Below are positions 2,822-26,818 of a DNA stretch of 32,000 bases, piece after piece (positions within the stretch are counted from its first letter, which is position 1; each line of letters opens with the position of its first letter). Position numbers and translations under genes: made by a program. The stretch is taken from NCBI RefSeq assembly GCF_000018105.1, contig NC_009927.1, forward strand, positions 120,001 through 152,000, given 5' to 3'. Under the pieces are notes generated by a model. That model was not told the origin of the DNA. It did no database searches and was given only the letters and a program-made list of their open reading frames with translations. This stretch comes from Acaryochloris marina MBIC11017 (lineage in GTDB: Bacteria > Cyanobacteriota > Cyanobacteriia > Thermosynechococcales > Thermosynechococcaceae).

Positions 2822-3330
2822 TACCCTTGAACCAGCAGCTGATTGAAGTCAATCGCTACAGCAATAACAGCGAGGCAGATGCTCTCCTACGCCAGGTTGG
2901 CGGACAACGCAGGGTGAACCAGGAACTTATGCGCTTGGGCCTCCGCCCTGAGAGCTATATCCAGGTAGATGGTTCAGGGCTATCCCGTAGTAATCGCATG
3001 CCGCCCTCAACGCTGATTACGCTATTAAAAGCAATGAAGCGTCATCGCGAAGGAGTGGTGTTCTACAATTCGCTGCCGATCGCTGGGGTCAACGGCACCT
3101 TACGAAATCGCTTCCAAAACACCCGACTGCACGGAAAACTTCACGGTAAAACCGGCACCTTAAGGGGAGTGCGGGCACTATCGGGATATCTAGACAACGC
3201 AGACTATGGCACGATTGCTTTCAGTATTTTGGTCAACCAGCCTGGGCAATCGGGACAGGTTTTGACCCAAGCTATTGACCAAATTGTGTTGCAGATGGCT
3301 CAAGTCAATCGATGTAACTTAGATAGCTAA
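2386..3330 (+). CDS. dacB: D-alanyl-D-alanine carboxypeptidase/endopeptidase, PBP4 (peptidase S13) family
   Basis: Ordered penicillin-binding motifs SxxK (ASNTK), SxN (GSGLSRSN) and KTG (GKTGTL). N-terminal signal-like hydrophobic segment. At 314 aa it is short for the family. Confidence 0.8.
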   Translation: MPSLNSFIPFTKICRAIAPVAALCSVFGTVLSQAAPSHAVTQRSLLTPSLIQSIPITTAVAKAVNRVRGVKPKFCSHMLALAIDEILEDPRFETAQWGIVVEPVAEPTVLYQHNRDRALIPASNTKLLTTAAAINLISNRVPEIPVPLNQQLIEVNRYSNNSEADALLRQVGGQRRVNQELMRLGLRPESYIQVDGSGLSRSNRMPPSTLITLLKAMKRHREGVVFYNSLPIAGVNGTLRNRFQNTRLHGKLHGKTGTLRGVRALSGYLDNADYGTIAFSILVNQPGQSGQVLTQAIDQIVLQMAQVNRCNLDS

Positions 3331-3524: not shown

Positions 3525-4868
3525 ATGACTAAGAAAATTTTGATTAAGAATGCCCAGCTAGTCAATGAAGGTAGGGTGTTTTTATCAGACGTACGTATTA
3601 GTAATGAACGAATAGAACAAATATCTAGATCAATAACACCCTCTGGCAGTGACGAGGTAGTTGATGCAGCTGGTTTTTACCTGCTGCCTGGAATGATTGA
3701 TGATCAAGTGCATTTTCGTGAGCCTGGGCTAACTCACAAAGGTACTATTGCGAGCGAGTCTCGTGCAGCTGCGGCTGGTGGTATTACGAGTTTTATGGAA
3801 ATGCCTAATGTTAGTCCTTCCACTACAACTATTGAGGCTCTAGAGAATAAATATAAAATCGCTCAGAAACGTTCGGTTGCAAACTATGCGTTTTATTTGG
3901 GAGCTACGGAAAATAATCTGGAACAAATCAAACGCCTTGATCCGAGTAAATATTGTGGCGTTAAAGTTTTCATGGGTGCTTCAACGGGAAACTTGTTGGT
4001 TGAAAATATAACTGCACTTGAGGATATTTTTCGGGAGGCACCAACATTAATCGTCACTCACTGTGAAAGTGGCCCGGTTATCGCAAAAAATCTGGCTCGT
4101 GTCAAAGCTTTCAATCGCCCTACTGTTATTACCGATCATCCAACTATTAGAGATGCTGAGGCTTGTTTCGCTTCGTCTTCTTTGGCTGTGGGCTTAGCCA
4201 AGCGTTATGGCAGTCAATTACATGTTTTACACATTACTACTGCCAAGGAATTAAGTTTATTTGATCCAGGTCCGATTGCTAATAAGTCCATTACTGCTGA
4301 AGCATGCGTTCATCATTTATGGTTTAGCGATCAGGATTATGCGGGACTTGGGAACTTGATTAAGTGCAATCCAGCCATTAAGTCTGCCGAAGATCGTGCT
4401 GCATTAATTCAAGCTGTTCATGAAGGTCTTATTGATATTATTGCCACCGATCATGCACCACACACTTGGGAAGAAAAGCAGATGGATTATCCACAGGCTC
4501 CTGCAGGTTTACCTTTAGTACAGCATGCTTTACTGACTCTTTTTGATCATGTAACTCATAAACGCATGTCTCTTGCTCAGCTAGTTGAAAAAACCGCTCA
4601 TAATCCCGCTATTCGATATGGTGTAATTGATCGAGGCTACATTCGTGAAGGGTATTTTGCCGATTTAGTATTAGTCGATATGGACACACCATTTACCGTC
4701 ACACCCGAGAATACTTTTTACCATTGTGGTTGGTCTCCTTTTATGGGGTATAGATTTAGTTCCAGTATTTTGAGGACTTGGATTAATGGTCAATTGGTGT
4801 TTGATGGCCAACAAATAATTGAGTGTCCGGGAGCCTCAAAAAATTTGGAATTTAGAGGTGTGAGATAA
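3525..4868 (+). CDS. pyrC: dihydroorotase (long, allantoinase-like amidohydrolase type)
   Basis: Motifs PGMIDDQVHFREPGLTHKG, AAAGGITSFMEMPN, KVFMGASTGN and IATDHAPH are characteristic of the dihydroorotase family. The first His of the usual HxH is Gln here (QVH). Confidence 0.8.
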   Translation: MTKKILIKNAQLVNEGRVFLSDVRISNERIEQISRSITPSGSDEVVDAAGFYLLPGMIDDQVHFREPGLTHKGTIASESRAAAAGGITSFMEMPNVSPSTTTIEALENKYKIAQKRSVANYAFYLGATENNLEQIKRLDPSKYCGVKVFMGASTGNLLVENITALEDIFREAPTLIVTHCESGPVIAKNLARVKAFNRPTVITDHPTIRDAEACFASSSLAVGLAKRYGSQLHVLHITTAKELSLFDPGPIANKSITAEACVHHLWFSDQDYAGLGNLIKCNPAIKSAEDRAALIQAVHEGLIDIIATDHAPHTWEEKQMDYPQAPAGLPLVQHALLTLFDHVTHKRMSLAQLVEKTAHNPAIRYGVIDRGYIREGYFADLVLVDMDTPFTVTPENTFYHCGWSPFMGYRFSSSILRTWINGQLVFDGQQIIECPGASKNLEFRGVR

Positions 4869-13232: not shown

Positions 13233-15197
13233 ATGGCTATCCCTGAAGTAAATCTCATCGTACTGGCAGACCAGGCCGCCACCCCCATCGATGCTGCCCG
13301 GTCCCGGACCCAACCCGCAACAACCCCACTGGCCGATCTCCGGTGGATGCGAGTCGAAGAATTCCTAAGATCCCGCGAAATCCGACCCAACACCCACAAA
13401 GCCTATGAGCGAGACTTGAAGCAGCTCATGGACTGGACCCCAAAGGGATGGCATGAGATTACCTCCAGGGACTTGGATCGATACAAGACCTATCTCAAGA
13501 CTGAACCCAACCACCGGGGCAAGCTCCGCAAGTGTGCGACCATTAACCGGAGCTTGGCCGCATTGCAGAGCTTCTTCAAATGGCTGACGGTTCGGGACTA
13601 CATCACCAAAAACCCAGCTTTACTCTTAGAAAAGCTGAAGTCTGATCCATTGCTGCCCCAGGAATTCAGCCAGGACGAAGTGGATAATCTATATCAGGCC
13701 ATTTGCGATCGCGGGTTTCATTCCTTCCGAGATCGGGCATTGCTGCACCTGATTGATCATGGGTTGAGAGCATCAGAGATTCAGGGGTTGAATGTTGGGG
13801 ACTATGATGGTCAGCGTGTTCACATCAGAGAAGCCAAGGCTGATAGCGTTGGGTCTGTTCCACTTTTGAGCAAGGCCAGGAGAGCGTTTGACCAGTACAA
13901 GCAGTGGCGAGAACAACAGGGTGAAGTCCTTGAAGATGAGTCACCGTTGTTTGTATCCCACTCCAATAACAGCAAAGGACAACGGTTGCAATATTGGGGC
14001 ATCTACAAGATATTCAAGGCGATTGCTGATATTGCCGAGGTGGAGAATGCCCATCCTCACCGAGGACGGCATACCCTAGCGACTCGACTAGTGATGAAAG
14101 ACATGGACTCGATTCTGGCCCGGAAGGTTACCCGGCACAAATCAGAGCAGTCTTTTGTCCGTTATTCAGATCGGGGAATTGAGCTGAAGGCAGAGCAGCA
14201 ATTCTATGAGGTGCATGGGGAAGCGCCAGGGGGCGAGGATGGGATCGTTGAAGACCAGTTGGAAGGTATTGAGCTGAAGGCGGTCGTTGAGGAGCCTGCG
14301 AACTGGCCCAAGATTAAGGCGGTGGGTCTGCCCTTGAATACGGTCCAGGTGAGGCTGACCCTTGAGGTTTCAGGGAAGAAGAAGGGCAAGGTCAGGAAGG
14401 AGATCGAGGAGCGGGTCTTTAGTCCTTTTCAGATGGTCAAACCTAAGCCGAGGGGGAATGAGTATGAGCTGATGGTTGTGGTTGAGGGAGGCGATACGTT
14501 GTCTGCAATTACCGATCAGATGAAATGGGATATGGAGCTACTGGGGGAACTGGATGATTGCGAGGTGAAAGTGGCGTGGTTGGATCAGCAAGAATCGACT
14601 GGAGAGGTGACTCTAGAATCTCAGGAAGACGAGTCAGCTTTTGCCGAGTCTTCCGCAGGGCAACGGCCTACTTCCACCTCCAGCGTCTATCAAATGAAGA
14701 TCATGCTGCTGGGAGTACGGCCCCAAGTCTGGCGGCGCATTCAAGTCCCAGAGACGACGACGCTGGCCCAACTACATTCTGTATTGCAAGTCGTGATGGG
14801 GTGGGAAGGTTACCATCTGCACCAGTTCTCGGATAGCGAAGACGAAGCCATGACTTTAGCGGAGCTGATCGAAGATGATTTATTCTCATTCGGCTACCTA
14901 TATGACTTCGGGGATATGTGGCGACATGAAATCAAGGTGGAGAAGAGGTTAGAGAGTAAACCTGGAAAAAACTATCCCATTTGTCTGGCTGGAAAGCGGG
15001 CCTGTCCACCGGAAGACTGTGGTGGTGATTGGGGGTATGCTCGTCTGCTGAGGGTACTGAATAACCCCAGACATCCTGAGCATGAGGAGCGGTTGGAATG
15101 GGTTGGGAGTGATTTTGACCCGAAGGCGTTTGACCTGGAGGAGGTGAATCAAGCCTTGAAGGAGCTTGAGGTTGAAACAATGAGCTATTTTGATTGA
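13233..15197 (+). CDS. tyrosine recombinase (phage-integrase family) fused to a C-terminal pRiA4b ORF-3-like (MM3350-like) domain
   Basis: N-terminal SAM-like domain (NTHKAYERDLKQL). Catalytic residues are present: GLRASE (Arg), HPHRGRHTLAT (HxxR) and FVRYSD (Tyr). After an acidic linker comes VYQMKIMLLGVRPQVWRRIQVPETTTLAQLHSVLQVVMGWEGYHLHQF...YLYDFGDMWRHEIKVEK...CPPEDCGG, which I recognise as PF07929-type. Confidence 0.85.
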   Translation: MAIPEVNLIVLADQAATPIDAARSRTQPATTPLADLRWMRVEEFLRSREIRPNTHKAYERDLKQLMDWTPKGWHEITSRDLDRYKTYLKTEPNHRGKLRKCATINRSLAALQSFFKWLTVRDYITKNPALLLEKLKSDPLLPQEFSQDEVDNLYQAICDRGFHSFRDRALLHLIDHGLRASEIQGLNVGDYDGQRVHIREAKADSVGSVPLLSKARRAFDQYKQWREQQGEVLEDESPLFVSHSNNSKGQRLQYWGIYKIFKAIADIAEVENAHPHRGRHTLATRLVMKDMDSILARKVTRHKSEQSFVRYSDRGIELKAEQQFYEVHGEAPGGEDGIVEDQLEGIELKAVVEEPANWPKIKAVGLPLNTVQVRLTLEVSGKKKGKVRKEIEERVFSPFQMVKPKPRGNEYELMVVVEGGDTLSAITDQMKWDMELLGELDDCEVKVAWLDQQESTGEVTLESQEDESAFAESSAGQRPTSTSSVYQMKIMLLGVRPQVWRRIQVPETTTLAQLHSVLQVVMGWEGYHLHQFSDSEDEAMTLAELIEDDLFSFGYLYDFGDMWRHEIKVEKRLESKPGKNYPICLAGKRACPPEDCGGDWGYARLLRVLNNPRHPEHEERLEWVGSDFDPKAFDLEEVNQALKELEVETMSYFD

Positions 15198-15385
15198 GAA
15201 GGATCTTTACCCACTTGCTGACAGTCGGCTAAATAATCATCAATGACGTTATGAAAAGATTGCTTTAACTCATCCGCCGTCTGACCATCAAATGCAATGA
15301 CATCGCGAATCCCCAAGACGCGACCAAAGAAGATCTGATCATTAGCATCGAACTCAACCACAGATTCATAGCCCTTGTACTTCAT
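15185..15385 (-). pseudogene. HicB-family antitoxin, N-terminal domain only (C-terminal DNA-binding part missing)
   Basis: MKYKGYESVVEFDANDQIFFGRVLGIRDVIAFDGQTADELKQSFHNVIDDYLADCQQVGKDP matches the HicB N-domain. The expected ...YSGKF..RIP..LH RHH segment is absent. The ORF runs into the integrase 3' end with a 13-nt convergent overlap. Confidence 0.65.
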
Positions 15386-15718
15386 CTAACCCCCAGATAC
15401 CAATTTGCTACTAGCTAGGCGGTTGAGGCTAATCCCTTGTTCTGCTGCTTGGATAGCCAGTTGACGATGCTGCTCAGGTGGAATTCTCACCATAAATTTC
15501 CCACTGTATTGCTTTTTAGACAGAGGGGTAGGGATAGGCTCATCCTGTGCCACTAAATCCTCAATACAATCTTTGACCAATTCCACAATGCCAGCGAAAG
15601 CAGACTGTTGATCTTCATCCAGCCAGCTCAAACTTGGAAATTCGGCGCACAAGCCCACAAACTCCTCATCTTCTTGAGACCAGATGACCCGGTAGGTATA
15701 GTATTTGGCATCCATCAC
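15386..15718 (-). CDS. hicB: HicB-family antitoxin (N-domain plus RHH-like C-terminus)
   Basis: YTYRVIWSQEDEEFVGLCAEFPSLSWLDED...KKQYSGKFMVRIPPEQHRQLAIQAAEQGISLN. ATG 15713-15715 shares one base with the hicA TGA (15715-15717). The ORF-track start is the GTG one codon upstream. Confidence 0.85.
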   Translation of the reverse strand: MMDAKYYTYRVIWSQEDEEFVGLCAEFPSLSWLDEDQQSAFAGIVELVKDCIEDLVAQDEPIPTPLSKKQYSGKFMVRIPPEQHRQLAIQAAEQGISLNRLASSKLVSGG

Positions 15719-15960
15719 ATTGACTCCAGCTTTTGGATCGCGGCTAACACTTGTTTGACTTGGTAGGGTTTGCCCATCCCTTTCTTGGATTGGATATTGA
15801 CGAAAGGATCACCCTGCCAGGGAGTCTTGTAAACCCGATGGCTTCCAGAAGTCTGACGAGCTTCCCCGAAGTAGTGATCGCAAACCTTACACAAATCAGA
15901 GAACTTAATCCCAGCGGGATTATTCCCCATTTTGGCAACAATTTTGTCGATACTGGCCAT
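15715..15960 (-). CDS. hicA: HicA-family mRNA-interferase toxin
   Basis: 81 aa from the internal ATG 15960: MASIDKIVAKMGNNPAGIKFSDLCKVCDHYFGEARQTSGSHRVYKTPWQGDPFVNIQ..GKPYQVKQVLAAI (YcfA/HicA-like). The ORF-track extension up to 16227 looks non-coding. Confidence 0.8.
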   Translation of the reverse strand: MASIDKIVAKMGNNPAGIKFSDLCKVCDHYFGEARQTSGSHRVYKTPWQGDPFVNIQSKKGMGKPYQVKQVLAAIQKLESM

Positions 15961-15992: not shown

Positions 15993-16086
15993 AGAATACT
16001 CTTCGATATAAGACCAAACTGTTCGTTAGAGTTTCACTAGAGTCATAATGACTTGCTAAAATCCACGAATTTGCGTATATGGATAC

Positions 16087-16110
16087 GGAAATTGCCATTA
16101 TCGCAACCAA
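16087..16110 (+). repeat. copy A of a 24-nt dispersed direct motif (candidate recombination site)
   Basis: GGAAATTGCCATTATCGCAACCAA matches 23314-23337 at 20/24 positions in the same orientation. Confidence 0.7.
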
Positions 16111-16406
16111 ATCGAGAAATGAAGAATGAACGAAATACCTTTGGTTTGAATTTGGCCTGAAATCTTTGTGGGATTGTTCTTGAAATCGTTCATCTAAAAA
16201 CATAAAAACAGATGAAGGGTAGGGCAACAGTCTTTGGTCAACCCAAATGAATGATTAAGTACCCAGCAGTTATACAACAGCCTAAAAATATTGCGGAATA
16301 AGTAGAAATACTACTTTCCAAGGTTATCCATGCCATTATTTTATGCAAGGTGATTTTGGATTTAGCTTCAGCGCATTTAGAGGATTGGGGACTGTGATAA
16401 AAACTG

Positions 16407-17735
16407 TTGGAATGGATAGGTTTTATGGCACCAGATTTACGCCAATTCTTTCGCGCTTGCAATCCGGGTAAAACAATTCGCTTTGAAGACCCTGAAGAAC
16501 GAAACTATTACATCGACTTTTCATCGGTCCGAGGGGGAGAAGTCATTGAAGAACTGGGCCAAACCATTGCACTCATGGATCCAGATCCGACCTGCCAGCT
16601 TTTCTCGGGGCATATTGGCTGTGGTAAGTCCACTGAACTTCTGCGACTAAAAAAAGAGCTACAAGAAAAAGGCTTCCATGTCGTCTATTTCGAGTCCAGT
16701 GCAGATCTGGATATGGGTGATGTGGATGTGAGTGATATCTTGCTAGCCATTGCCCATCAAGTCAGTGAAAGCCTAGAAGCTGCCAAAATTTCCACTCAAT
16801 CGAGTTACTTTAATCGGCTGCTCAAGGAATGTGTGGATTTTTTAAATACCCCTGTGGAGTTGGGGATTGAAGCAGAACTGTCCTTGGGGATTGGCAAATT
16901 AACCGCAAAAACCAAAGAAAGCCCACAATTACGGAGCCAACTGCGCCAATATCTAGAACCTCGGACAGAAAGTTTGCTGAATGCTATTAACCGAGAACTG
17001 CTGCAACCTGCCCAGGAGGAGCTGAATAAGCAGGGGAAGCAGGGCTTAGTGGTGATTATCGACAATCTGGATCGGGTGGATAATCGACCGATAGCTTCGG
17101 GGCAAACCCAGGCGGAGTACTTATTTATCACTCGGGGAGAGCAGTTAGGGGGGTTACGATGCCATGTCGTCTATACCATTCCTCTGGTATTGATGTTCTC
17201 CAATGAGTTGCAAGCTCTGAAAAATCGGCTAGGCGGTGGGGCTAATCCGATGGTGTTGCCGATGGTTCCCATTCGATTGCGGGAGGGGAATGATTGTGAG
17301 GCGGGAATGGCTCTGTTGCGTCAAATGGTTTTAGCTCGGGCTTTTCCCCAGGCCACACCAGATGAACGTTTAGCTTCGGTGACAGAGGTGTTTGACTCAC
17401 CGGAGACATTAAATCAACTCTGTGTGGCGAGTGGTGGACATGTTCGTAATTTGCTGAGTCTGCTATTTACCTGTTTAAGAAAACGCAAGAGCTTGCCCAT
17501 TACCCAAGACAGTTTGCAGTTAGCGATTCAAGAAGCTAAGGATGATTTGACCGCTACTATCGATGCTGAAGAGTGGGAACTGCTCAAACAGGTCCATTCC
17601 TCGAAGAAAGTCACGGGAGAAGAGGAATGTCAGGCATTATTGCGGAGTCTATTTGTATTTGAATATCGCAACCATGCCGATGGTCGATGGTTTGATATTA
17701 ATCCAGTATTGGCAGGTGCTCGTGAATTGTCATGA
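16407..17735 (+). CDS. P-loop ATPase (AAA+/ORC-Cdc6-like or STAND-like, no repeat domain)
   Basis: Walker A GHIGCGKST (16608-16634) and Walker B LVVIIDNLDR (~17046-17075). The second ATG at 16425 (MAPDLRQFF...) may be the true start. The stop overlaps the next start as ATGA at 17732-17735. Confidence 0.8.
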   Translation: MEWIGFMAPDLRQFFRACNPGKTIRFEDPEERNYYIDFSSVRGGEVIEELGQTIALMDPDPTCQLFSGHIGCGKSTELLRLKKELQEKGFHVVYFESSADLDMGDVDVSDILLAIAHQVSESLEAAKISTQSSYFNRLLKECVDFLNTPVELGIEAELSLGIGKLTAKTKESPQLRSQLRQYLEPRTESLLNAINRELLQPAQEELNKQGKQGLVVIIDNLDRVDNRPIASGQTQAEYLFITRGEQLGGLRCHVVYTIPLVLMFSNELQALKNRLGGGANPMVLPMVPIRLREGNDCEAGMALLRQMVLARAFPQATPDERLASVTEVFDSPETLNQLCVASGGHVRNLLSLLFTCLRKRKSLPITQDSLQLAIQEAKDDLTATIDAEEWELLKQVHSSKKVTGEEECQALLRSLFVFEYRNHADGRWFDINPVLAGARELS

Positions 17736-20700
17736 CGGAGACTTCATTTACCGTAGGGACTGAGCATCTGGCTCAATTGGAAGAATTGGCCTGGACCATT
17801 GAGATGTCTGAGGGGCAGTTTACGCTGATTTTAGCGAACTGCAATTATGCTCAACTGCGAACGGCTTTAATCCAACGCTTGGCTGAGCTATGTTCTGTAG
17901 CGATCAAGCCTGTGCATTTGAATCCAGATGCAGTGACCTTGTACTCAGCTATCCAGCAGCAGCTTGGACAACAGGTTCCCCCGGCTTTGATGGTGACGGG
18001 GTTAGAATCGCTAGAAGCCTTAGAACAAGTTTTGACATCTGCGAATCAAGCCCGAGAGGAATTTCGCAAACGCCTACCCGTCCCGATGGTGCTGTGGCTG
18101 GATGATGATTTGCTGAAGCAGATGGTGCGTTTAGTTCCTGATCTAAAAAGTTGGGGGACTTCCTTTCGGTTTCAAGCTGAGCCTGTGGAATTGGTGCAGT
18201 TTCTACAAGACTGTAGCCAGCGCTTGTTTACAAAAATTCTCGATGTAGGGCAGTTTGTACCTAATTCTGAGGTATTGGGTAAACGGAATCGGCAAGAAAT
18301 TAGCTATGCAATACAAGCCTTAGAAACACCCGGGACCACTCTTAACCCAAAATTGCAAGCTACTGTGATCTTTGCTCAGGGCCGGAATGCCTATGCCAAG
18401 GGTGATTTGAAAAAGGCGCTTGATTTCTATCAGCATAGTTTGCAGGAGTGGCCGGATTCAGAACAACCCTCTGGAGGAATGCCTGCTAGGACAAACGATG
18501 AGTCTGGAAGTACCTCTGAAATAGAAAACTCACGACATAAGGGAATTGTACTGATTCATCAGGGCTGGTGTTATCAGGCAATGGCTCAACAGGATTCATC
18601 CCAAACAGCAGCATTTCTGGAACAAGCTAAGCAGTCCTTTGAGCAAGGATTGGATTGTTTAGGGGCATCGTCGGAGCTGGGGATTCTGTATCTGGGGCAA
18701 CTAGGAGAGGTTCTGCATCAGTTAGAGAATTGGGATGCGTTAGATCAACTGGCCTTAAACCTATATCAGAACACCACACCTGAAAAGCACCCTCTGCAAT
18801 ATATGGAAGCGTTGGTGTTGCGGGCACAGGTTTGCAACCATCGTCAAACCTGGGAGCCAGCTCTTGATTTGACCGAAGAAGCACTACAGATTTGGGAGGT
18901 GGGAAGTACTGAGATACAGGTGCTGGCCCAGCAGCAAATCTTGCGAATGCGTATGGGCCTACTCAGTGCCCAAGCTCAGCAAGCTCTGGGAAAGTCTCAA
19001 GCAGCTATTGACGATTTAGAGCAGACTATAGCTGCCACTGATGCAAGTGCAGATCCACATTTGTTTGTGGAGATTTTGGAGCAGCTAAGGCAGCTTTATT
19101 TTGATCAGAAAGACTATCAGAAAGCTTTTGAGACTAAGCAACTGAAAACGACGGTCAAACTCAAATTTCGATTACAGGCGTTTATTGGGGCGGGACAGTT
19201 GCAACCCCAGCTTGGGGACGAGGAAGGGATTGATGAATCCTTGGTGTTGTCGGGACGACAGCAAGATATTGAAGTGATTGTGAATGAACGGCTGAGCCAG
19301 GATCAATACAAGCTGGTGATATTGTATGGTCCTTCTGGCGTGGGCAAGAGTTCATTAGTCAAAGCAGGGCTGGTTCCAGTTTTGCAGCAGCGCGTGATTA
19401 GAGATCGGAAAACTTTGCCTGTGGTGGTGAATGTTTATAGCAATTGGGTTGCGGAGCTACAAGCAAAGCTAGAACAGGCTGCTTCTGTGCCACACACTAT
19501 GAAAACTGAGATTTCAGGTGTGGAGACCTCTGAAGATGTGAGCCAAGCATCCGATGTTGTCAAAGGTGAAACGGGCACTAGTGACAGCTTAGAGCAGATT
19601 AAGCAGCAACTTAAACACAATGTAGAGGCTCAACGATTAACTGTACTTGTTTTTGACCAGTTTGAGGAGTTCTTTTTTAACTGCCAAGAGCCTGGTTTAA
19701 GACGCCGATTCTATGAGTTTTTACAGGCTTGTTTGGACGGCAGAGCCATTCCCTTTGTGAAAGTGGTTTTATCGTTGCGGGAAGATTACTTTCACTATTT
19801 ACTTGAGTTTGGGCGGTTCACGACTAGACATGGGCTAGAGCAGGATGTACTCCGGCAAGATAATCGCTATTATTTGGGGAATTTTGATTTAGATTCAGCG
19901 CGGTTGGTCACAGAACGGCTGGCGAAACGAGCGCAATTTCATGTGCAATCGCAGGTGATTGAGCGGCTGATTGGTGATTTAGCGACGGAATTGGATCAGG
20001 TGCGTCCGATTGAATTGCAGGTGTCCGGCGCGCAACTTCAGACAGAAAATATTACAACCTTGCAGCAGTATGAACATCTTGGTGAGCAGCCCAAAAAGGT
20101 ATTAGCTAGTCGCTGGCTGGAACAGGTAGTAGAAGACTGTGGACCAGAGAACAACGAGACTGCTTGGAAGATGTTGGTTTCTTTGACTGATAGCAAGGGA
20201 ACACGACCGCTTCGAACTGAGCAAGAACTGTGGAATGCTGTCAGTACTTTTGCCTTGTTGGATACTGAAGATTCTAATCTTCAAGATTTACCTCAATCTA
20301 ACCCTGAAGATCTGACGCATTTTTCCTTGATTTTGAGAATATTGCAGGGATCTGGGTTAATTGTTCATTGGCCCCAAGAGCAAGATGATCGCTTTCAACT
20401 GGTTCATGATTATTTGGTTGAACCGATTCGACAACACTTTGACACTGACTTAGAGCAAAAACTTCGTAGTGAACGACAAGCTCGACAAAAAGCAGAAGCA
20501 GGGCGTGCAAAGCTCTTGAAGATCTCATTAGGCGGAGCTTTTATTGCCATTGCGGGTTTAATCGGTCTTTTATGGAGAGCAGAAAATTTGCGGTATAGAG
20601 CTGAGCGTCGAGAAGCTAACGCTGAAGTTTTAGCTCTAAGTCTTTCAAGTAAAAATTTGTTCGACTCCAACTATCAACTGAAATCCCTAACAAAAGCATT

Positions 20701-23224
20701 AATGGCTGGTCAAAATTTACGTGACTATGAAGAAAAACAAGAGAATCGACTAGAGAATCATATGTATGGTGTCGCAACACTTCGTGATTCCGTCTATAAC
20801 ATTCGACAGCAAAATAACCTCGAAGGCCATACCGATGCGGTCCTAGCCTTGGCCTATAGCCCGGATGGGAGCACCCTGGCCACGGCGAGTTCTGACAAGA
20901 CAGTGAAATTGTGGTCGAAGGAGGGGAGCCTGATCACTACCCTCGAAGGCCATACCGATTTGGTCCTAGCCTTGGCCTATAGCCCGGATGGGAGCACCCT
21001 GGCCACGGCGAGTTATGACAAGACAGTGAAATTGTGGTCGAAGGAGGGGAGCCTGATCACTACCCTCGAAGGCCATACCGATGCGGTCCTAGCCTTGGCC
21101 TATAGCCCGGATGGGAGCACCCTGGCCACGGCGAGTTCTGACAATACGGTGAAATTGTGGTCGAAGGAGGGGAGCCTGATCACTACCCTCGAAGGCCATA
21201 CCGATGCGGTCCTAGCCTTGGCCTATAGCCCGGATGGGAGCACCCTGGCCACGGCGAGTTCTGACAATACGGTGAAATTGTGGTCGAAGGAGGGGAGCCT
21301 GATCACTACCCTCGAAGGCCATACCGATTTGGTCCTAGCCTTGGCCTATAGCCCGGATGGGAGCACCCTGGCCACGGCGAGTTCTGACAATACGGTGAAA
21401 TTGTGGTCGAAGGAGGGGAGCCTGATCACCACCCTCGAAGGCCATACCGCTGCGGTCGGGGACTTGGCCTATAGCCCGGATGGGAGCACCCTGGCCACGG
21501 CGAGTGATGACAAGACAGTGAAATTGTGGTCGAAGGAGGGGAGCCTGATCACCACCCTCGAAGGCCATACCGCTGCGGTCGGGGACTTGGCCTATAGCCC
21601 GGATGGGAGCACCCTGGCCACGGCGAGTAGGGACAATACGGTGAAATTGTGGTCGAAGGAGGGGAGCCTGATCACCACCCTCGAAGGCCATACCGATTTG
21701 GTCCTAGCCTTGGCCTATAGCCCGGATGGGAGCACCCTGGCCACGGCGAGTTATGACAAGACGGTGAAATTGCGGTCGAAGGAGGGGAGCCTGATCACCA
21801 CCCTCGAAGGCCATACCGCTGCGGTCCTAGCCTTGGCCTATAGCCCGGATGGGAGCACCCTGGCCACGGCGAGTTCTGACAATACGGTGAAATTGTGGTC
21901 GAAGGAGGGGAGCCTGATCACCACCCTCGAAGGCCATACCGATTTGGTCAACACCTTGGCCTATAGCCCGGATGGGAGCACCCTGGCCACGGCGAGTAGG
22001 GACAATACGGTGAAATTGTGGTCGAAGGAGGGGAGCCTGATCACCACCCTCGAAGGCCATACCGATGCGATCTGGGCCTTGGCCTATAGCCCGGATGGGA
22101 GCACCCTGGCCACGGCGAGTGATGACAATACGGTGAAATTGTGGTCGAAGGAGGGGAGCCTGATCACCACCCTCGAAGGCCATACCGATGCGGTCGGGGA
22201 CTTGGCCTATAGCCCGGATGGGAGCACCCTGGCCACGGCGAGTTCTGACAATACGGTGAAATTGTGGTCGAAGGAGGGGAGCCTGATCACCACCCTCGAA
22301 GGCCATACCTATGCGATCTGGGACTTGGCCTATAGCCCGGATGGGAGCACCCTGGCCACGGCGAGTAGGGACAATACGGTGAAATTGTGGTCGAAGGAGG
22401 GGAGCCTAATCACCACCCTCGAAGGCCATACCGATGTGATCTGGGCCTTGGCCTATAGCCTGGATGGGAGCACCCTGGCCACGGCGAGTAGGGACAAGAC
22501 GGTGAAATTGTGGAACTTTGAGCTTGAAGATCTACTAAAGCGAGGCTGTCAATGGTTATCCGGCTATTTTATTCGACACCCACAGGAATTAGAATTACTA
22601 ACGGTTTGTCACAGTCCTGCGATTCTGAGTTTGGCTGCACTAGGCTTGGTCAGGCAAGGTCAAGTTCTTGCAGAAGCTGGAAATATGGAAAAAGCTCGAC
22701 AGAAGCTCCAAACTGCACTTAAATGGAGTCCCAAATTGGATCTTGATCCAGAAACTGAAATGAAAGATCGGGATGCTAAAAAGTTAGTGATTAAATGGGC
22801 TGCCCCTGCCAAAGCTGAAAAGGCTAAACAATTAGCTAGGCAAGGAAAAGTGAGTGACTCCATCCTCATTTTTCGAGAATTGCAGAGTTGGCAAGATACT
22901 GATAAGGCAGTAGAAATCTCAGCATCGTCTTGGAATTCACTTTGTTGGTTTGGGAGTTTGCATAGAAAAGCAAAATCGGTAATGTTTGCTTGTGAGAAAG
23001 CTGTCGCTTTTGACCCCAGTCATGGGGGGAGGCGCGATAGTAGAGGTTTAGCTAGAGCCTTAACCAATAACCCAAAAGGGGCAATAGAAGATTTTGAAGC
23101 GTATATCAAATTGTCTAATAGAGCTAGCGATCGTAAAAAGCAAAGGCAAAGTTGGATCGATGCCTTGAAAGCAGGGAAAGATCCTTTTACTGATGAAGTG
23201 CTGGATAGTCTCTTTGATGAATAA
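17732..23224 (+). CDS. 1830-aa multidomain STAND NTPase: degenerate P-loop-like N-module, TPR, nSTAND1-like NTPase, one TM helix, 14 WD40 repeats, TPR-like C-terminus
   Basis: N-module FTLILANCNYAQL / ALMVTGLES / VPMVLWLDDD has no Walker A. TPR-like AQGRNAYAKGDLKKALDFYQ. Walker A ILYGPSGVGKSSLVKAG (~19328), Walker B LTVLVFDQFEEFF (~19649). Hydrophobic helix ISLGGAFIAIAGLIGLLW (20522-20575). 14 x LEGHT....LAYSPDGSTLATAS.D.TVKLWSKEGSLITT. Confidence 0.9.
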   Translation: MTETSFTVGTEHLAQLEELAWTIEMSEGQFTLILANCNYAQLRTALIQRLAELCSVAIKPVHLNPDAVTLYSAIQQQLGQQVPPALMVTGLESLEALEQVLTSANQAREEFRKRLPVPMVLWLDDDLLKQMVRLVPDLKSWGTSFRFQAEPVELVQFLQDCSQRLFTKILDVGQFVPNSEVLGKRNRQEISYAIQALETPGTTLNPKLQATVIFAQGRNAYAKGDLKKALDFYQHSLQEWPDSEQPSGGMPARTNDESGSTSEIENSRHKGIVLIHQGWCYQAMAQQDSSQTAAFLEQAKQSFEQGLDCLGASSELGILYLGQLGEVLHQLENWDALDQLALNLYQNTTPEKHPLQYMEALVLRAQVCNHRQTWEPALDLTEEALQIWEVGSTEIQVLAQQQILRMRMGLLSAQAQQALGKSQAAIDDLEQTIAATDASADPHLFVEILEQLRQLYFDQKDYQKAFETKQLKTTVKLKFRLQAFIGAGQLQPQLGDEEGIDESLVLSGRQQDIEVIVNERLSQDQYKLVILYGPSGVGKSSLVKAGLVPVLQQRVIRDRKTLPVVVNVYSNWVAELQAKLEQAASVPHTMKTEISGVETSEDVSQASDVVKGETGTSDSLEQIKQQLKHNVEAQRLTVLVFDQFEEFFFNCQEPGLRRRFYEFLQACLDGRAIPFVKVVLSLREDYFHYLLEFGRFTTRHGLEQDVLRQDNRYYLGNFDLDSARLVTERLAKRAQFHVQSQVIERLIGDLATELDQVRPIELQVSGAQLQTENITTLQQYEHLGEQPKKVLASRWLEQVVEDCGPENNETAWKMLVSLTDSKGTRPLRTEQELWNAVSTFALLDTEDSNLQDLPQSNPEDLTHFSLILRILQGSGLIVHWPQEQDDRFQLVHDYLVEPIRQHFDTDLEQKLRSERQARQKAEAGRAKLLKISLGGAFIAIAGLIGLLWRAENLRYRAERREANAEVLALSLSSKNLFDSNYQLKSLTKALMAGQNLRDYEEKQENRLENHMYGVATLRDSVYNIRQQNNLEGHTDAVLALAYSPDGSTLATASSDKTVKLWSKEGSLITTLEGHTDLVLALAYSPDGSTLATASYDKTVKLWSKEGSLITTLEGHTDAVLALAYSPDGSTLATASSDNTVKLWSKEGSLITTLEGHTDAVLALAYSPDGSTLATASSDNTVKLWSKEGSLITTLEGHTDLVLALAYSPDGSTLATASSDNTVKLWSKEGSLITTLEGHTAAVGDLAYSPDGSTLATASDDKTVKLWSKEGSLITTLEGHTAAVGDLAYSPDGSTLATASRDNTVKLWSKEGSLITTLEGHTDLVLALAYSPDGSTLATASYDKTVKLRSKEGSLITTLEGHTAAVLALAYSPDGSTLATASSDNTVKLWSKEGSLITTLEGHTDLVNTLAYSPDGSTLATASRDNTVKLWSKEGSLITTLEGHTDAIWALAYSPDGSTLATASDDNTVKLWSKEGSLITTLEGHTDAVGDLAYSPDGSTLATASSDNTVKLWSKEGSLITTLEGHTYAIWDLAYSPDGSTLATASRDNTVKLWSKEGSLITTLEGHTDVIWALAYSLDGSTLATASRDKTVKLWNFELEDLLKRGCQWLSGYFIRHPQELELLTVCHSPAILSLAALGLVRQGQVLAEAGNMEKARQKLQTALKWSPKLDLDPETEMKDRDAKKLVIKWAAPAKAEKAKQLARQGKVSDSILIFRELQSWQDTDKAVEISASSWNSLCWFGSLHRKAKSVMFACEKAVAFDPSHGGRRDSRGLARALTNNPKGAIEDFEAYIKLSNRASDRKKQRQSWIDALKAGKDPFTDEVLDSLFDE
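20819..22513 (+). repeat. tandem array of 14 x 123-bp (41-codon) WD40-coding units
   Basis: Exact 123-nt period (units start at 20819, 20942, ...). A 42-nt block TTGGCCTATAGCCCGGATGGGAGCACCCTGGCCACGGCGAGT is identical in 13 of 14 units. Differences cluster at codons 6-10 and 25/27 of the unit. Confidence 0.95.
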
Positions 23225-23278
23225 TACCCTCACCACCCTTAGCAGACAAGAATCTATAGAACTAGTCTGACTGCTTTG

Positions 23279-23337
23279 TCTGAAAGGAATTCAGGGTGTG
23301 TATGATTGGTTCAGGAAACCGCCATTATCGTAACCAG
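23279..23337 (+). repeat. copy B of the dispersed direct motif (24-nt core 23314-23337 plus ~35 nt of weaker upstream similarity)
   Basis: The core GGAAACCGCCATTATCGTAACCAG matches copy C at 23/24. Upstream, CTGAAAGG..TTCA... aligns to 24196-24230 at roughly 65-70% identity without gaps. Confidence 0.8.
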
Positions 23338-23383
23338 TCGAAAGTAGGAGACAGTTCCCCCACTCTATTTCAACCTCAATATC

Positions 23384-23423
23384 AGTAGGACTATAGTAAC
23401 CTTTATGTTACTATAGTCCTACT
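23384..23423. promoter_or_regulatory. perfect 17-bp inverted repeat abutting the killer-gene start (candidate operator and promoter)
   Basis: AGTAGGACTATAGTAAC (23384-23400), a 6-nt spacer, then GTTACTATAGTCCTACT (23407-23423), with ATG at 23424. Each arm contains TATAGT. The right-arm copy ends 6 nt before the ATG. Confidence 0.5.
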
Positions 23424-23792
23424 ATGAAACTGCAAGAGTACATCAAAGAGGATGGCTCCAGTCCTTACCAAAAGTGGTTTAACCGATTAGATGCTATAGC
23501 AGCAGCAAAGGTTACGGTTGCCGTTTCTCGTCTGGAATTAGGCAACACCTCAAATGTGAAGTGGTTCGATGGAATTGGTGAATACCGGATCAATTGGGGG
23601 CCAGGATACCGTATCTATCTGATCCAAGATGGCAAGGAGTTGATTGTTTTATTGGGAGGAGGAACGAAAAAGGATCAACAGTCGGATATCACCAAGGCTA
23701 AGGAGCTTTCTCAAGAATATAAAAATCGGAAGAAGCAAGCGAATATAGATCCTCAAAAGAAGAAACAACGGCGAAAGAGAAAAAAGAAGTAA
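23424..23792 (+). CDS. addiction-module killer protein (RelE/ParE-superfamily toxin) with a Lys/Arg-rich tail
   Basis: YIKEDGSSPYQKWFNRLD...AAAKVTVAVSRLELGN.SNVKWFDGIGEYRINWGPGYRIYL.QDG.ELIVLLGGGTKK.Q..DI..AK fits the killer-protein family pattern. The C-terminal KNRKKQ...KKKQRRKRKKK extension is unusual. Confidence 0.8.
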   Translation: MKLQEYIKEDGSSPYQKWFNRLDAIAAAKVTVAVSRLELGNTSNVKWFDGIGEYRINWGPGYRIYLIQDGKELIVLLGGGTKKDQQSDITKAKELSQEYKNRKKQANIDPQKKKQRRKRKKK

Positions 23793-23797
23793 ATATC

Positions 23798-24121
23798 ATG
23801 GCATTGACGAGAGATTTCAAAGAGACTATCCACTCCCGAGTGCAGTCGGACCCTGAGTTTGCAACTGCCTTATTGGATGAAGCTGCATACCTCATGCTTA
23901 ATGGAGAGCCAGAAACAGCTCGATTAATATTGCGGGATTTAGTCAATGCGACGGTTGGCTTTGAACAACTTGCTGTCGAAGCGAATAAGCCCAGTAAGAG
24001 TCTTCATCGGATGCTATCTGCTAAAGGAAACCCAACGATGGATAGTTTGAACGCAATCTTTACTGCACTGCGTAAGAGGCTGAATGTGGATATTCAAGTT
24101 CATGCAGTTTCTTCTTCTTGA
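23798..24121 (+). CDS. addiction-module antidote protein (HTH antitoxin)
   Basis: Starts 5 nt after the toxin stop. Contains LLDEAAYLMLNGEPETARLILRDLVNATVGFEQLA...KSLHRMLS.KGNPTMDSL..IF.AL, as in the antidote proteins paired with killer proteins. Confidence 0.8.
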   Translation: MALTRDFKETIHSRVQSDPEFATALLDEAAYLMLNGEPETARLILRDLVNATVGFEQLAVEANKPSKSLHRMLSAKGNPTMDSLNAIFTALRKRLNVDIQVHAVSSS

Positions 24122-24195
24122 TGGATTCAGAACTGGAACTGAAGTGAGGGTTTCAGAAGACTGAAAATACAATATTAATTGGCTAAATCGCTTTA

Positions 24196-24254
24196 CCTGA
24201 AAGGGCTTCAAGACTTGTAAGCTTAGGGAAGGAAACAGCCATTATCGTAACCAG
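24196..24254 (+). repeat. copy C of the dispersed direct motif (core 24231-24254)
   Basis: GGAAACAGCCATTATCGTAACCAG. It ends 8 nt upstream of the recombinase ATG at 24263. Confidence 0.8.
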
Positions 24255-24262
24255 AAACCGAT

Positions 24263-25237
24263 ATGGAACTCGACGCAATACCCACCCCTCCAGCTTCGGC
24301 CCTAAAAATTCTTGAAAACGATGTTCTGAGTGATTTGCTCAGGGATAAACGATCTCCCAGCACCCGACGAGCCTACCGCAAAGACCTGACTGATTTTTTC
24401 CGCAAGATGTTTGCTGAAGATCCCACCCCTGAAATGGTGGGTCTATTCCTGGGGATGGATCGGCATGAGGCGCTGCAGCTAGTCGCCAGGTACAAGGGCA
24501 TTTTAATTGAGCTGGAGTTGGCCGAGGCCACGGTAAATCGGAGACTATCGGCCCTGAGAAGCTTGGTATCCTATGCCCGTCGAGCGGGTCAGTGCACCTG
24601 GGGCCTGGAGGATATTAAAGGTGAAAAAGTGATTGCCTATCGGGATACTTCAGGGGTGGATCTGGAGGATTTTCAGAAGATGTTGGCGATTCCAGATCGA
24701 GAAACGCAGCTAGGGAAGCGGGATTATGCGATTCTGGCCTTGCTCTGGGAAACAGCCTTGCGGCGAGGGGAGCTGAATCGTTGTAATGTCGGGGACTGGG
24801 AACCCGAGGAAAAAGCGCTGTGGATTCAGGGGAAGGGTCGAGGCACACAGAAAGAACGGGTGACGGTTGGTAACGTGAGTGCGATCGCACTGGAGGATTG
24901 GCTATCAACTCGGAAGCACTTGGAGGATGATGACCCGCTGATTGTGGCCCTGGATATCGTGCATTGGGGGCAGCGATTATCCACGACATCTATTTATAAG
25001 GTGGTCAGGAACATAGCCACGAAAGCGGGTATCAGCAAGGTGATGTCCCCACACCGGGTTAGGCATTCCTCGATCACTGCGGCACTAGATGCCACGGGTG
25101 GAAATGTCCGGGCCGTGCAGCAGCTCTCTCGCCATGCCAAGCCAGAAACAGTGATGCGCTATGACGATAATCGGAAGGATCTTCAGGGAGAGGTGACGGG
25201 GGTTTTATCTCGGTTATTGGGAGAGGCAGAGGATTGA
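24263..25237 (+). CDS. tyrosine site-specific recombinase (XerC/D-like integrase family)
   Basis: N-terminal SAM-like STRRAYRKDLTDFF. Catalytic LWETALRRGEL (Arg), HRVRHSSIT (HxxR) and SRHAKPETVMRYD (His, Tyr). Confidence 0.9.
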   Translation: MELDAIPTPPASALKILENDVLSDLLRDKRSPSTRRAYRKDLTDFFRKMFAEDPTPEMVGLFLGMDRHEALQLVARYKGILIELELAEATVNRRLSALRSLVSYARRAGQCTWGLEDIKGEKVIAYRDTSGVDLEDFQKMLAIPDRETQLGKRDYAILALLWETALRRGELNRCNVGDWEPEEKALWIQGKGRGTQKERVTVGNVSAIALEDWLSTRKHLEDDDPLIVALDIVHWGQRLSTTSIYKVVRNIATKAGISKVMSPHRVRHSSITAALDATGGNVRAVQQLSRHAKPETVMRYDDNRKDLQGEVTGVLSRLLGEAED

Positions 25238-25252
25238 GGTGAAGAGTAGTGA

Positions 25253-26704
25253 TTAATTCCAGATCTTTAGTTGTTCTTCTTTAACGAATATTTCTGCATC
25301 ATCGAGACTTGGGAAAATTTTTGGAAGGCGTTTGTGTAAGGCGGCAGCTACCTTGTCACAGTCCCTGTTGCGCTCAATCTTGATTTTATTGTGGAGTGGA
25401 GAGTTGCAAATCAATGGTGGTTCCTTGCTCTCTAGTTGAGATTGGATGAGATGAGTCTCCCGTAAGTCAGTATTCAATAGAATGGCGTTGTTGAGGTCGG
25501 CGCTGCTGAGGCTTGCATCGCTGAGGTTGGCACTGAGGAGGTTGGCACCCCTGAGGATAACATCGCTGAGGTTAGCTCTGCTGAGGTCGGCACCGATGAG
25601 GAAGGCACTGCTGAGGTTGGCTTTGTAGAGGTAGGCACCGCTGAAGTAGGCACCGCTGAGGTCGGCATCGTTGAGGTGGGCATGGCCGAGGTGGGCTTTG
25701 CTGATGTCGGCGAGGCTGAGGTTGGCTTTGCGGAAGTTGGCCCCGCTGAGGTGGGCATGGCGGAGGTTGGCTTTGCGGAGGTTGGAATAGCTGAGGTTGG
25801 CACCACCGAGATTGGCACCGATGAAGTTGGCGATGCTGAGGTAGGCATCGCTGAGGTTGGCATCGATGAGGTTGGCACCCCTGAGGTTGGCATCGATGAG
25901 GTTGGCACCCCTGAGGTTGGCACCGCTGAGGTTGGCATCGATGAGGTTGGCACCCCTGAGGATAGCAACGCTGAGGTCGGCATAGCTGAGGTCGGCACCG
26001 CTGAGGTCGTGACTTCTCAAGTCAAGCTGTTTACCTTGATCCTGCCCTGATTCGCGTCTACCAATAACTGTTAATGCAGCTTGAACATCGTTAGCAATTG
26101 GCTTTGGTGATTTTGATGATTTCTTCGTTACTTCAGTTGAAGGTGATTGTTTTGATATTGGATTTTGCTTTGATGCCTTATCCTTCTCATTCTTGGATAC
26201 TTTATCCTCCTCATCCAATGGCGATCTTTCAAGAACATAAGCCGATAGTAATTCCATGATTGTCCAATGGTCTCTCGGAGAATCCTTAGCTATTCTTTCT
26301 AATGAATAAATAGCTGCAATACGGACAGCATTATCTTCATTTGATAGAAGAGTCGCAGCCTTTGAAAATCGATCAGTAATCAGCCTCTCTTGTGTTAATT
26401 TCCGATCCTCCGTTGCATCCCAGACAGTCCAAATCAAGCCAACAGCAGCAGATGCAGTTGCCAGAATACCGAACATGGAAATGATGACCTTGATCGCTTC
26501 GCGCCGATTATCATCAAGGAGAGATGACCAAAATCCACCGACATAAGTCATAGGATTAATCCACCGGAGATATCCTTTGCTACTTGTTTTCTGCTCAATT
26601 TTCTCAATCTCAGCAGTCTCAATCGCCACCTGTTTTTCTTGCCAAATCTCATAGGAATTAGGCCCTAAAGCATCCTCAGAGGGCTTTTCTCGACGAAAAA
26701 GCAT
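25253..26704 (-). CDS. membrane-anchored pentapeptide-repeat protein
   Basis: About 38 consecutive A(D/N)LxG-type pentapeptides (...GANLIDANLSGANLRGANLIDANLRG...). One hydrophobic helix, AIKVIISMFGILATASAAVGLIWTVW. The ORF track starts at TTG 26710, but ATG 26704 is more likely. Confidence 0.85.
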   Translation of the reverse strand: MLFRREKPSEDALGPNSYEIWQEKQVAIETAEIEKIEQKTSSKGYLRWINPMTYVGGFWSSLLDDNRREAIKVIISMFGILATASAAVGLIWTVWDATEDRKLTQERLITDRFSKAATLLSNEDNAVRIAAIYSLERIAKDSPRDHWTIMELLSAYVLERSPLDEEDKVSKNEKDKASKQNPISKQSPSTEVTKKSSKSPKPIANDVQAALTVIGRRESGQDQGKQLDLRSHDLSGADLSYADLSVAILRGANLIDANLSGANLRGANLIDANLRGANLIDANLSDAYLSIANFIGANLGGANLSYSNLRKANLRHAHLSGANFRKANLSLADISKAHLGHAHLNDADLSGAYFSGAYLYKANLSSAFLIGADLSRANLSDVILRGANLLSANLSDASLSSADLNNAILLNTDLRETHLIQSQLESKEPPLICNSPLHNKIKIERNRDCDKVAAALHKRLPKIFPSLDDAEIFVKEEQLKIWN

Positions 26705-26818
26705 AGGCAAAACAGCTTGAAACCTCGCAAAAAGTATAGGTTATCAAGTGACAGTTTGAATCGATCACCGGTTATTCGTGAAGCTTTTGCTAATTGGGGT
26801 TATCGCAGTAATTTGGAC

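Follow-up and report, generated by a model that had tools for sequence, protein, structure and literature searches.

The nearest known system to the one described here is that of the Acinetobacter dif modules, which the relevant papers present as plasmid modules bounded by pdif (XerC/XerD) sites, found in varied contexts and with toxin-antitoxin (TA) genes among their cargo (PMC13141974, PMC6449649, PMC5790767). According to a 2026 paper, such a system is unique to Acinetobacter (PMC13141974). The present locus is located on a plasmid of the cyanobacterium Acaryochloris marina MBIC11017, within a stretch of 32,000 nucleotides (nt) that is referred to here as the window (contig NC_009927.1, positions 120,001 to 152,000). 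In it three copies of a short motif, A, B and C, divide a STAND gene pair and a TA gene pair into two cassettes that end at the gene for a Xer-like tyrosine recombinase of 324 amino acids (aa). We consider it likely that these copies are 32-bp dif/lox-type core sites of a plasmid-borne Xer-like recombinase, and that they bound independent cassettes.

How does such an array compare with what has already been described? As with the dif modules, there are core-bounded modules with inverted arms and a 6-bp spacer, which occur in several plasmid contexts and include TA cargo; here too related plasmids can differ by a single module, and similarity of the spacers seems to matter. Acinetobacter pdif sites alternate between the C/D and D/C orientations, whereas the cores here are all direct repeats, and their arms are 13 bp rather than 11 bp in length. 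Unlike the dif modules, which are served by chromosomal XerC/XerD, the array has a dedicated Xer-like recombinase gene adjoining it, with a contribution of host XerC/XerD also possible. The setting differs as well, in that the host replicon is a cyanobacterial megaplasmid and the larger module is a 7.2-kb STAND NTPase unit in place of resistance-gene cargo.

A second point of comparison is provided by the integrative mobile elements exploiting Xer (IMEX), such as CTX, TLC, VGJ and the gonococcal island, which integrate in tandem at dif and leave hybrid sites with one good and one degenerate arm. The array in the window likewise has tandem units separated by hybrid sites with one good and one degenerate arm, but it differs from the IMEX, which use chromosomal dif and host XerCD, in being a plasmid array with its own recombinase and non-phage cassettes. 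In full-text searches of papers open without subscription, no description was found of an Acaryochloris system of this type or of a target site for the 324-aa recombinase family. A 2011 survey reported that dif prediction failed in cyanobacteria (PMC3025954).

Architecture of the core site

The initial annotation had noted three plus-strand copies of a 24-nt motif, matching at 20/24 positions between A and B and at 23/24 between B and C, and had held that such matches were not to be expected by chance. A search of the window with up to three mismatches bears this out, placing the copies at 16087-16110 (GGAAATTGCCATTATCGCAACCAA; A), 23314-23337 (GGAAACCGCCATTATCGTAACCAG; B) and 24231-24254 (GGAAACAGCCATTATCGTAACCAG; C), all on the plus strand. 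The next best 24-mer match in the window is 15/24, and 100 dinucleotide-preserving shuffles of the window gave no match at all. The similarity that B and C were said to share upstream is also real and only its extent has to be corrected, from about 35 nt to about 41 nt, the two forming a 65-nt repeat of 77% identity (23273-23337 and 24190-24254).

When the copies are aligned together with their flanks the motif itself stands, and it is the length of 24 nt that does not. The conserved unit begins 8 nt further left, giving a 32-bp core in which two 13-nt arms, the right one an inverted copy of the left, flank a spacer of 6 nt; the reported 24-mer takes in the spacer, the whole of the right arm and, from the left arm, only the innermost 5 nt. 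Every copy accommodates a 6-nt spacer and has a well-preserved right arm, but the left arms that cassette ends supply to B and C are degenerate, and for this reason only 24 nt had been noticed. Core site A (16079-16110, plus strand; ATGGATACGGAAA TTGCCA TTATCGCAACCAA) joins the left arm of the HicA backbone to the right arm of the STAND cassette, core site B (23306-23337, plus strand; TTGGTTCAGGAAA CCGCCA TTATCGTAACCAG) joins the STAND left arm to the TA right arm, and core site C (24223-24254, plus strand; TTAGGGAAGGAAA CAGCCA TTATCGTAACCAG) joins the TA left arm to the right arm of the recombinase side.

The clearest copies of the core are found elsewhere, in the metagenome contig L017 (Ga0209185_1000059; ATGGTTAAGGAAA TGACCA TTATCATAACCAG) and on plasmid pMB04 of Acaryochloris sp. 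'Moss Beach' (CTGGTTCCTATAA CAGCCA TTATCGTAACCAG, symmetric at 11 of 13 positions). Backbone-type copies and family members have arms that are symmetric at 8-11 of 13 positions. Detection relied on a matrix that did not include the outermost 8 nt of the left arm; these are complementary to the outer right arm at 69/96 positions (p < 1e-17), and the two arms co-vary, as seen with ACGTTATTGGAAA/TTATCAATAACGC in pCC7120delta of Nostoc PCC 7120, with TTATGTATGAAAA/TTAGCGTACATAA in Crinalium pCRI9333.04 and with ATGATTACGAAAA/TTAGCGTAACCAT in Crinalium pCRI9333.03. Close to the spacer the arms are systematically unlike, being GGAAA on the left and TTATC on the right; the arrangement of inner bases GAAA/ATAA, six nt and TTAT resembles the dif sequence of E. 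coli. At the level of sequence comparison the architecture of the site can thus be regarded as established.

What is it about this motif that has kept it so constant? That it is an operator for a transcription factor common to the three operons, or else the relic of a coding sequence, strikes us as extremely improbable. Each copy does lie upstream of a plus-strand gene or operon, and the earlier observation that all three can be read as G-N-x-H-Y-R-N-Q, with three of the four A/B differences synonymous in that frame, is literally true. However, the distances to the next start codon are unequal (8, 86 and ~315 nt), in-frame stops flank most copies at about 10 codons or nearer, and further copies read GNDHCHNQ and VNRHYHNQ, which alters the peptide; the coding relic is not supported. 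In addition, the breakpoints of strain differences fall within the motif, and in relatives it is found in either orientation beside recombinase genes with its arms co-varying. The conservation is better accounted for by arms that bind a recombinase as inverted repeats and change together from one species to the next.

The arms are also tied to their flanks. The left arm travels with the left flank, GGAAAT accompanying the HicA flank and GGAAAC the cassette ends, and the right arm travels with the right flank, CGCAACCAA with the start of the STAND cassette and CGTAACCAG with the start of the TA cassette or the recombinase side. The spacer mostly tracks the left flank, with TGACCA accompanying the HicA flank in plasmids unnamed10 and unnamed15 of strain S15 and in L017. 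A half site on S15 unnamed15 (locus L010, ~14690-14720) keeps the HicA flank together with left arm GTGTTTAAGGAGA and spacer TGACCA, but its homology stops precisely at the point expected for the first base of the right arm, beyond which the DNA is unrelated; it has the appearance of having arisen by recombination with a non-canonical partner. This break, along with the way in which arms and flanks travel together, leads us to place the apparent exchange point at the boundary of spacer and right arm.

Beyond the core itself the flanks are conserved. To the left, about 40 nt, termed L2, are common to the 3' ends of cassettes and contain CTGAAAGG and TGTRT. L2 adjoins core B at the 3' end of the STAND cassette (23273-23305, plus strand; also in MBIC10699 and pMB06) and core C at the 3' end of the TA cassette (24190-24222, plus strand; also in S15 and pMB07), both copies belonging to repeat family D9. 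To the right, about 110 nt, termed R1, begin the STAND cassette (16111-16225, plus strand) and align in L017 with the interval separating the core from the recombinase gene, and in S15 with the right flank of a third site (L006:18030), which lies ahead of a caspase/CHAT module; a BLAST search of the plasmid collection with R1 returned only R1 itself. L2 and R1 may be accessory sequences for recombination, and conserved sequence of ~65-110 nt flanking a core has its likeness in the accessory sequences of cer and psi. Alternatively, L2 together with the core may supply a promoter for the gene that follows, an idea raised by the recombinase gene having only 8 nt between the core and its ATG, although promoter and terminator scans around the sites did no better than shuffles. 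A weak promoter-like arrangement, TTGTAA-19 nt-CATTAT, can be read by eye across L2 and the core.

The third S15 core, on unnamed10 (L006, 18022-18053; GTAAATAGGCATTATCACAACCAG), lies 4.1 kb downstream of the 324-aa-type recombinase gene, with a fragmentary 190-aa integrase of another type immediately before it and the R1 flank and a set of caspase / CHAT / DUF4350 genes behind it. Given its position downstream of the recombinase, the recombinase gene in S15 may itself sit inside a core-bounded unit. The 190-aa fragment, annotated as 'site-specific integrase', was considered as a member of either recombinase family and matches neither.

Cassette gain and loss among related plasmids

The three cores are spaced 7227 and 917 bp apart, start to start, in keeping with the 7.2-kb and 0.9-kb units that had been proposed, and Pfam and TIGR profiles confirm the gene content that had been assigned to them, namely an NTPase with an 1830-aa gene, a toxin/antidote pair and a tyrosine recombinase. 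In the first cassette a P-loop NTPase gene (KAP/AAA_22/NPHP3_N-like; 16425-17735, plus strand), whose open reading frame reaches back to a TTG at 16407 and whose annotated homologue begins at ATG, is followed by the gene for an 1830-aa STAND protein (17732-23224, plus strand) whose TPR-like N-terminus and nSTAND1 NTPase domain (residues 507-833) are joined to ~14 WD40 repeats. The second holds the TA genes (23424-24121, plus strand), which encode a RelE/ParE-family toxin (23424-23792) and an antidote/helix-turn-helix protein (23798-24121). This identification draws on a match to TIGR02683 of 91 bits, above its cutoff, a weak match to TIGR02684 and agreement with annotated homologues. A perfect 17-nt inverted repeat with a 6-nt gap (23384-23423; I21) ends at the toxin ATG and is also kept in Moss Beach pMB07; it is probably the TA operator, in which case the cassette has its own control region.

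To the left, the array is preceded by the HicB, HicB and HicA genes (15185-15960, minus strand), identified from a HicB Pfam match and the RefSeq annotation of a 97.7%-identical stretch in MBIC10699. These form a conserved left backbone flank that precedes the site in S15 and in L017 as well. To the right, the 8 nt that had been reported between copy C and the recombinase gene are confirmed by the end of the one at 24254 and the ATG of the other at 24263, and the sequence beyond copy C is 98.5-100% identical to plasmid pREC1 of strain MBIC10699.

It is the comparison of strains, which the initial annotation had called for, that gives this arrangement its meaning, since MBIC10699, S15 and L017 each differ from the window by whole cassettes and Moss Beach plasmids carry each cassette in another context, with breakpoints at the site. 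On pREC1 of MBIC10699, for instance, the TA pair is missing: HicA is followed by a first site, the NTPase and STAND genes, a second site and then the recombinase gene. The alignment with the window extends as far as the last base of B (23337) and picks up again at 24190, where the stretch common to B and C begins, such that the window has exactly one extra unit of 917 bp. The reverse is seen in S15 plasmid unnamed10, where it is the STAND pair that is missing and the TA cassette alone lies between two sites, with HicA on one side and the recombinase gene on the other; here the alignment breaks off at 16102, within A, and picks up again with the first base of B (23314), so the window has exactly one extra unit of 7227 bp. 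L017 carries HicB-HicA, one core, ~105 nt and a recombinase gene whose product is 84% identical to the 324-aa recombinase, with no cassette.

In Moss Beach the two cassettes are on separate plasmids, pMB07 having the TA and pMB06 the STAND unit, each in unrelated surroundings. At the right junctions the homology of pMB07 ends at 24254, the end of C, and that of pMB06 at 23338, the end of B; pMB07 also retains a decayed left site. Across the compared relatives the breakpoints thus fall inside or at the end of the site, and the cassette polymorphism with junctions in the core is established by these alignments. On the left the STAND copy of pMB06 (L008) has homology to the window from 16287 and not from the core, and directly upstream of it, at 2297-2449 of pMB06, is a 50-aa N-terminal remnant of a recombinase of the 461-aa type; this left junction was made by some other event.

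Identity along the locus is mosaic. Against MBIC10699 it is 97.7% for HicBA, 99.7% for the recombinase gene, 100% for the pentapeptide gene beyond it and 98.5% for the rest, with 82-93% for the STAND cassette, while the TA cassette is 95% identical to Moss Beach and 88% to S15 next to a HicBA flank that is 98% identical to S15. This pattern fits cassette exchange better than simple loss. Taken together, the presence and absence of units with junctions at the motif supports the earlier proposal of a division into cassettes, and with it the view of the STAND system as a mobile cassette: the STAND module (7227 bp) and the TA module (917 bp) behave in these comparisons as independent cassettes that are gained or lost separately.

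Could the repeats instead be conserved cassette ends, with the strain differences arising through homologous recombination, slippage or ordinary deletions? The 65 nt shared by B and C at 77% identity could support a RecA-mediated deletion of the TA unit, and the degenerate left arms of B and C and the failure of the look-ups to return excision products point the same way. Yet A and B share only the 24-mer, at 20/24, and S15 nevertheless differs by exactly the A-to-B unit; the same cassettes are present on other plasmids with junctions at the same nucleotide, one locus (S15 unnamed15) breaks exactly at the boundary of spacer and right arm, and inverted arms co-vary beside recombinase genes in distant cyanobacteria. 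We regard an explanation through these general processes as quite improbable.

With site-specific recombination the array could have been built in the following way. In Acaryochloris plasmids the core would double as a landing pad, and a segment with one core, arriving as a circle or by way of a plasmid cointegrate, would recombine with the resident core. Recombinase bound to the arms would exchange strands at the spacer boundary, and the inserted segment would end up between two hybrid cores in direct orientation, which is how A would come to join backbone to STAND, B to join STAND to TA and C to join TA to the recombinase side. Repeated events would build the array A-STAND-B-TA-C, and the reverse reaction between direct cores would excise a segment as a circle. 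The TA circle would carry the junction ...CTTGTAAGCTTAGGGAAGGAAAC[A/C]GCCATTATCGTAACCAGTCGAAAGTAGGAG... and the STAND circle the junction ...GATTGGTTCAGGAAA[CC/TT]GCCATTATCGCAACCAAATCGAGAAATG...; the empty junction left after loss of STAND would have the HicA flank ...TATGGATACGGAAA-spacer-TTATCGTAACCAG followed by TCGAAAG, and that left after loss of both cassettes would have the HicA flank ...TATGGATACGGAAA-spacer-TTATCGTAACCAG followed by AAACCGATATG. The circular intermediates, and activity of the array at the present day, are what we infer from this scheme.

Of the layouts that had been offered for the locus, a dif-module-like system, or tandem accretion at one site, fits best, and the integron-like option survives only as a loose analogy. 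As with integrons, co-oriented cassettes of strain-variable content end at a tyrosine recombinase gene that has a primary site beside it, at its 5' end. An integron or integron-like element with folded single-stranded attC sites and an IntI-type integrase is nonetheless very improbable. The recombinase reaches only 35.9 bits against the integron-integrase model TIGR02249 (cutoff 265), in a match that covers only its C-terminal 80 residues, and 24.7 bits against NF011946 (cutoff 435), again in a C-terminal segment. There is thus no IntI signature, and the cores are short and of the double-strand 13-6-13 type rather than attC hairpins: the 91-nt regions around B and C fold no better than shuffles on either strand (z -0.6 to -1.5). 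Moreover, the recombinase gene is downstream of the cassettes and co-oriented with them, not divergent from an attI/Pc region, and at least the TA cassette has a control region of its own in the operator-like palindrome.

Recombinases associated with the cores

The 324-aa recombinase (24263-25237, plus strand; Pfam Phage_integrase, SAM-like) has the R, K, HxxR, H and Y motifs when aligned to XerA and XerD, with the Y of 'MRYD' as the putative active-site tyrosine. Both of the recombinases beside the array score 113-124 bits against the XerC/XerD equivalog models, whose cutoffs are 330-335. In a published classification of tyrosine recombinases, simple Xer-like enzymes of cyanobacteria form a group named 'Cyan' (PMC8138268). 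Relatives of about 50% identity are encoded on 125 plasmid records, mostly cyanobacterial (tblastn), and include those of Nostoc PCC 7120, Synechococcus elongatus pANL, Microcystis, Crinalium and Planktothrix.

Fourteen homologue loci of 3-6 kb on other cyanobacterial plasmids were scored on both strands with a matrix made from the Acaryochloris 24-mers only. In seven of them the locus-best core lies no more than 200 nt upstream of the recombinase gene (Poisson-binomial P = 3.6e-6), with an eighth at -177, which establishes by sequence the association of motif and recombinase family that had been suspected from the window. In relatives the core faces either way relative to the gene. A single core adjoins the gene on plasmids of Microcystis, Gloeothece, Crinalium, Planktothrix, Nostoc PCC 7120 (delta) and Stanieria, and within these 3-6 kb loci no extra core is convincing. 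One marginal case is on Crinalium pCRI9333.03 (L013), where a possible second core at 4429-4460 (minus strand; 21/32, with 11/13 left-arm bases) is intergenic and co-oriented with the main core at 2465, and the pair would bracket the recombinase gene and one hypothetical gene.

Upstream cores with co-varying arms are what would be expected of a recombinase that has its own core site, and the 324-aa recombinase is, on this comparative evidence, the most likely cognate enzyme. Because a single site sits beside the gene across the family, analogy suggests that the basic role of recombinase and core would be the resolution of plasmid multimers. In this the family is akin to Cre/loxP, ResD/rfsF and XerCD/cer-psi, with a single core of the 13-N-13 type next to a tyrosine recombinase gene in 7-8 of the 14 members. 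It departs from such multimer-resolution pairs, which have one site per replicon, in that the extra cores here delimit accessory cassettes.

There is, however, a second recombinase to be considered. Left of the array is the gene for a Xer-like tyrosine recombinase of 654 aa with a C-terminal PRiA4_ORF3 fusion (13233-15197, plus strand; Pfam Phage_integrase, SAM-like, PRiA4_ORF3). Its product is 26% identical to the 324-aa recombinase and 46% identical to a 461-aa recombinase of Moss Beach pMB04, and it is a possible alternative or partner recombinase. That this other family acts on the cores, or that both families act as a XerC/XerD-like pair with one enzyme per arm, is unlikely but has real points in its favour. 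In the window and in MBIC10699 alike the array lies between the two recombinase genes, the arms differ systematically near the spacer as they do in dif, and on pMB04 the highly symmetric core is 258 nt upstream of the 461-aa recombinase gene, with a right flank that recurs behind the cores of pMB06 and pMB07. Against this, association with the core across cyanobacterial plasmids is found for the 324-aa family, and the 654-aa gene of the window has no core upstream. A 94%-identical homologue of the 461-aa recombinase on S15 unnamed8 has the same upstream region with no canonical core, L017 has a core and a 324-aa-type gene with no 654-type gene within 3 kb, and on S15 unnamed10 the 654-type gene is only a fragment.

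As a constant partner of the array the 654-aa recombinase was rejected, L017 having an FAD oxidoreductase in that position. The PRiA4_ORF3 domain of the 654-aa protein is strongly matched (E = 7e-60) and is absent from the 461-aa relatives; in S15 the PRiA4 part alone remains of the 654-type gene, beside a transposase.

To return to cores of a plasmid-borne Xer-like recombinase as boundaries of independent cassettes, several observations weigh against this reading. The Moss Beach cores are joined to the upstream region of the 461-aa gene, and since this is a different recombinase the acting enzyme may be another than the 324-aa one. Among distant homologues only about half have a recognisable upstream core. 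The left arms of B and C have a symmetry of only 8/13 and 6/13, and these copies may be poor substrates or fossils. Spacers vary at their first two positions (TT, CC, CA), which would hinder a classical two-strand exchange requiring spacer identity. No circle or alternative junction was recovered, as look-ups with exact proteins gave only Logan contigs of up to 2 kb identical to the window, and that of the NTPase gave no record; the locus is present in read sets of Acaryochloris cultures such as SRR29694083 and DRR194262-DRR194265. A GTDB scan with GGAAANNGCCATTATCGNAACCA gave two unrelated matches (Chitinilyticum and Paenibacillus) and no Acaryochloris sequence, and is uninformative on copy number. 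The objection that the motif might be a common dispersed repeat has less force, for a BLAST search of 72,556 plasmid records, blind to diverged 32-bp sites, found near-perfect cores on only five Acaryochloris plasmids; all cores in the window and in loci L005-L009 are on one strand, as direct repeats.

Surroundings of the array and implications

On the right the backbone continues with a pentapeptide-repeat gene (25253-26710, minus strand) that is convergent with the recombinase gene and 100% identical in MBIC10699. A recombinase gene with a convergent pentapeptide gene recurs on Acaryochloris plasmids (window 24263-26710, L009 10279-14631, L043 1969-6225), with a 324-aa-type recombinase in the window and one from the 461-aa family in L009 and L043; the 3' ends of the pentapeptide genes of the window and L009 are homologous at 72%. 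A 23-nt inverted repeat (22/23 complementary) has one copy at 14686-14708, in the 654-aa gene, and the other at 26326-26348, in the pentapeptide gene, and so brackets the array. Each copy is sense to its gene, in differing frames (VYQMKIML and LSNEDNAV), and the rough chance expectation is ~2e-3.

Within the STAND gene the WD40 region (20695-22593) consists of 14 tandem units of 123 nt with a mutual identity of 91-97%. The MBIC10699 orthologue is longer by 270 nt (90 aa), such that the number of WD40 repeats appears to vary between strains. Another STAND-type gene lies left of the array, encoding a 714-aa protein (10830-12974, minus strand) whose MBIC10699 homologue is annotated as NACHT, and has 12/18-nt tandem repeats (GATGGCGATGGC...) at 11077-11418. 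Further left a 300-nt direct repeat (370-669 and 2309-2608, 96% identity, 1939 bp apart) is present, and the open reading frame at 447-791 repeats, in truncated form, the N-terminal ~113 residues encoded by that at 2386-3330. There is no tRNA or tmRNA in the window and no Rfam family at gathering thresholds; a tRNA-targeting island or prophage was rejected on these grounds, together with the in-frame stops and the lack of an open reading frame spanning the motif.

What would such a system mean for these organisms? It would be a site-specific cassette system outside integrons and the Acinetobacter dif modules. In it a complete 7.2-kb STAND NTPase module behaves as a discrete exchangeable unit, which would provide a mechanism for the spread of large defence-like genes between cyanobacterial plasmids. 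Comparison alone defines a predicted 32-bp target for a recombinase family on more than 100 cyanobacterial plasmids, and the recombinase/site pair has a potential use in cyanobacterial genetics and in the annotation of plasmid resolution sites. A broader and more tentative possibility, which we would not favour at present, is that the 324-aa family and its 32-bp core form a general platform for gene capture and shuffling on cyanobacterial plasmids, one that moves defence-type (STAND, caspase/CHAT) and TA cassettes among the Acaryochloris megaplasmids. If that were true, the platform would be a double-strand counterpart of integrons and of the Acinetobacter dif modules with its own recombinase, it would account for part of the mosaicism of Acaryochloris megaplasmids, and the core consensus would be a first lead to Xer-type sites in cyanobacteria.

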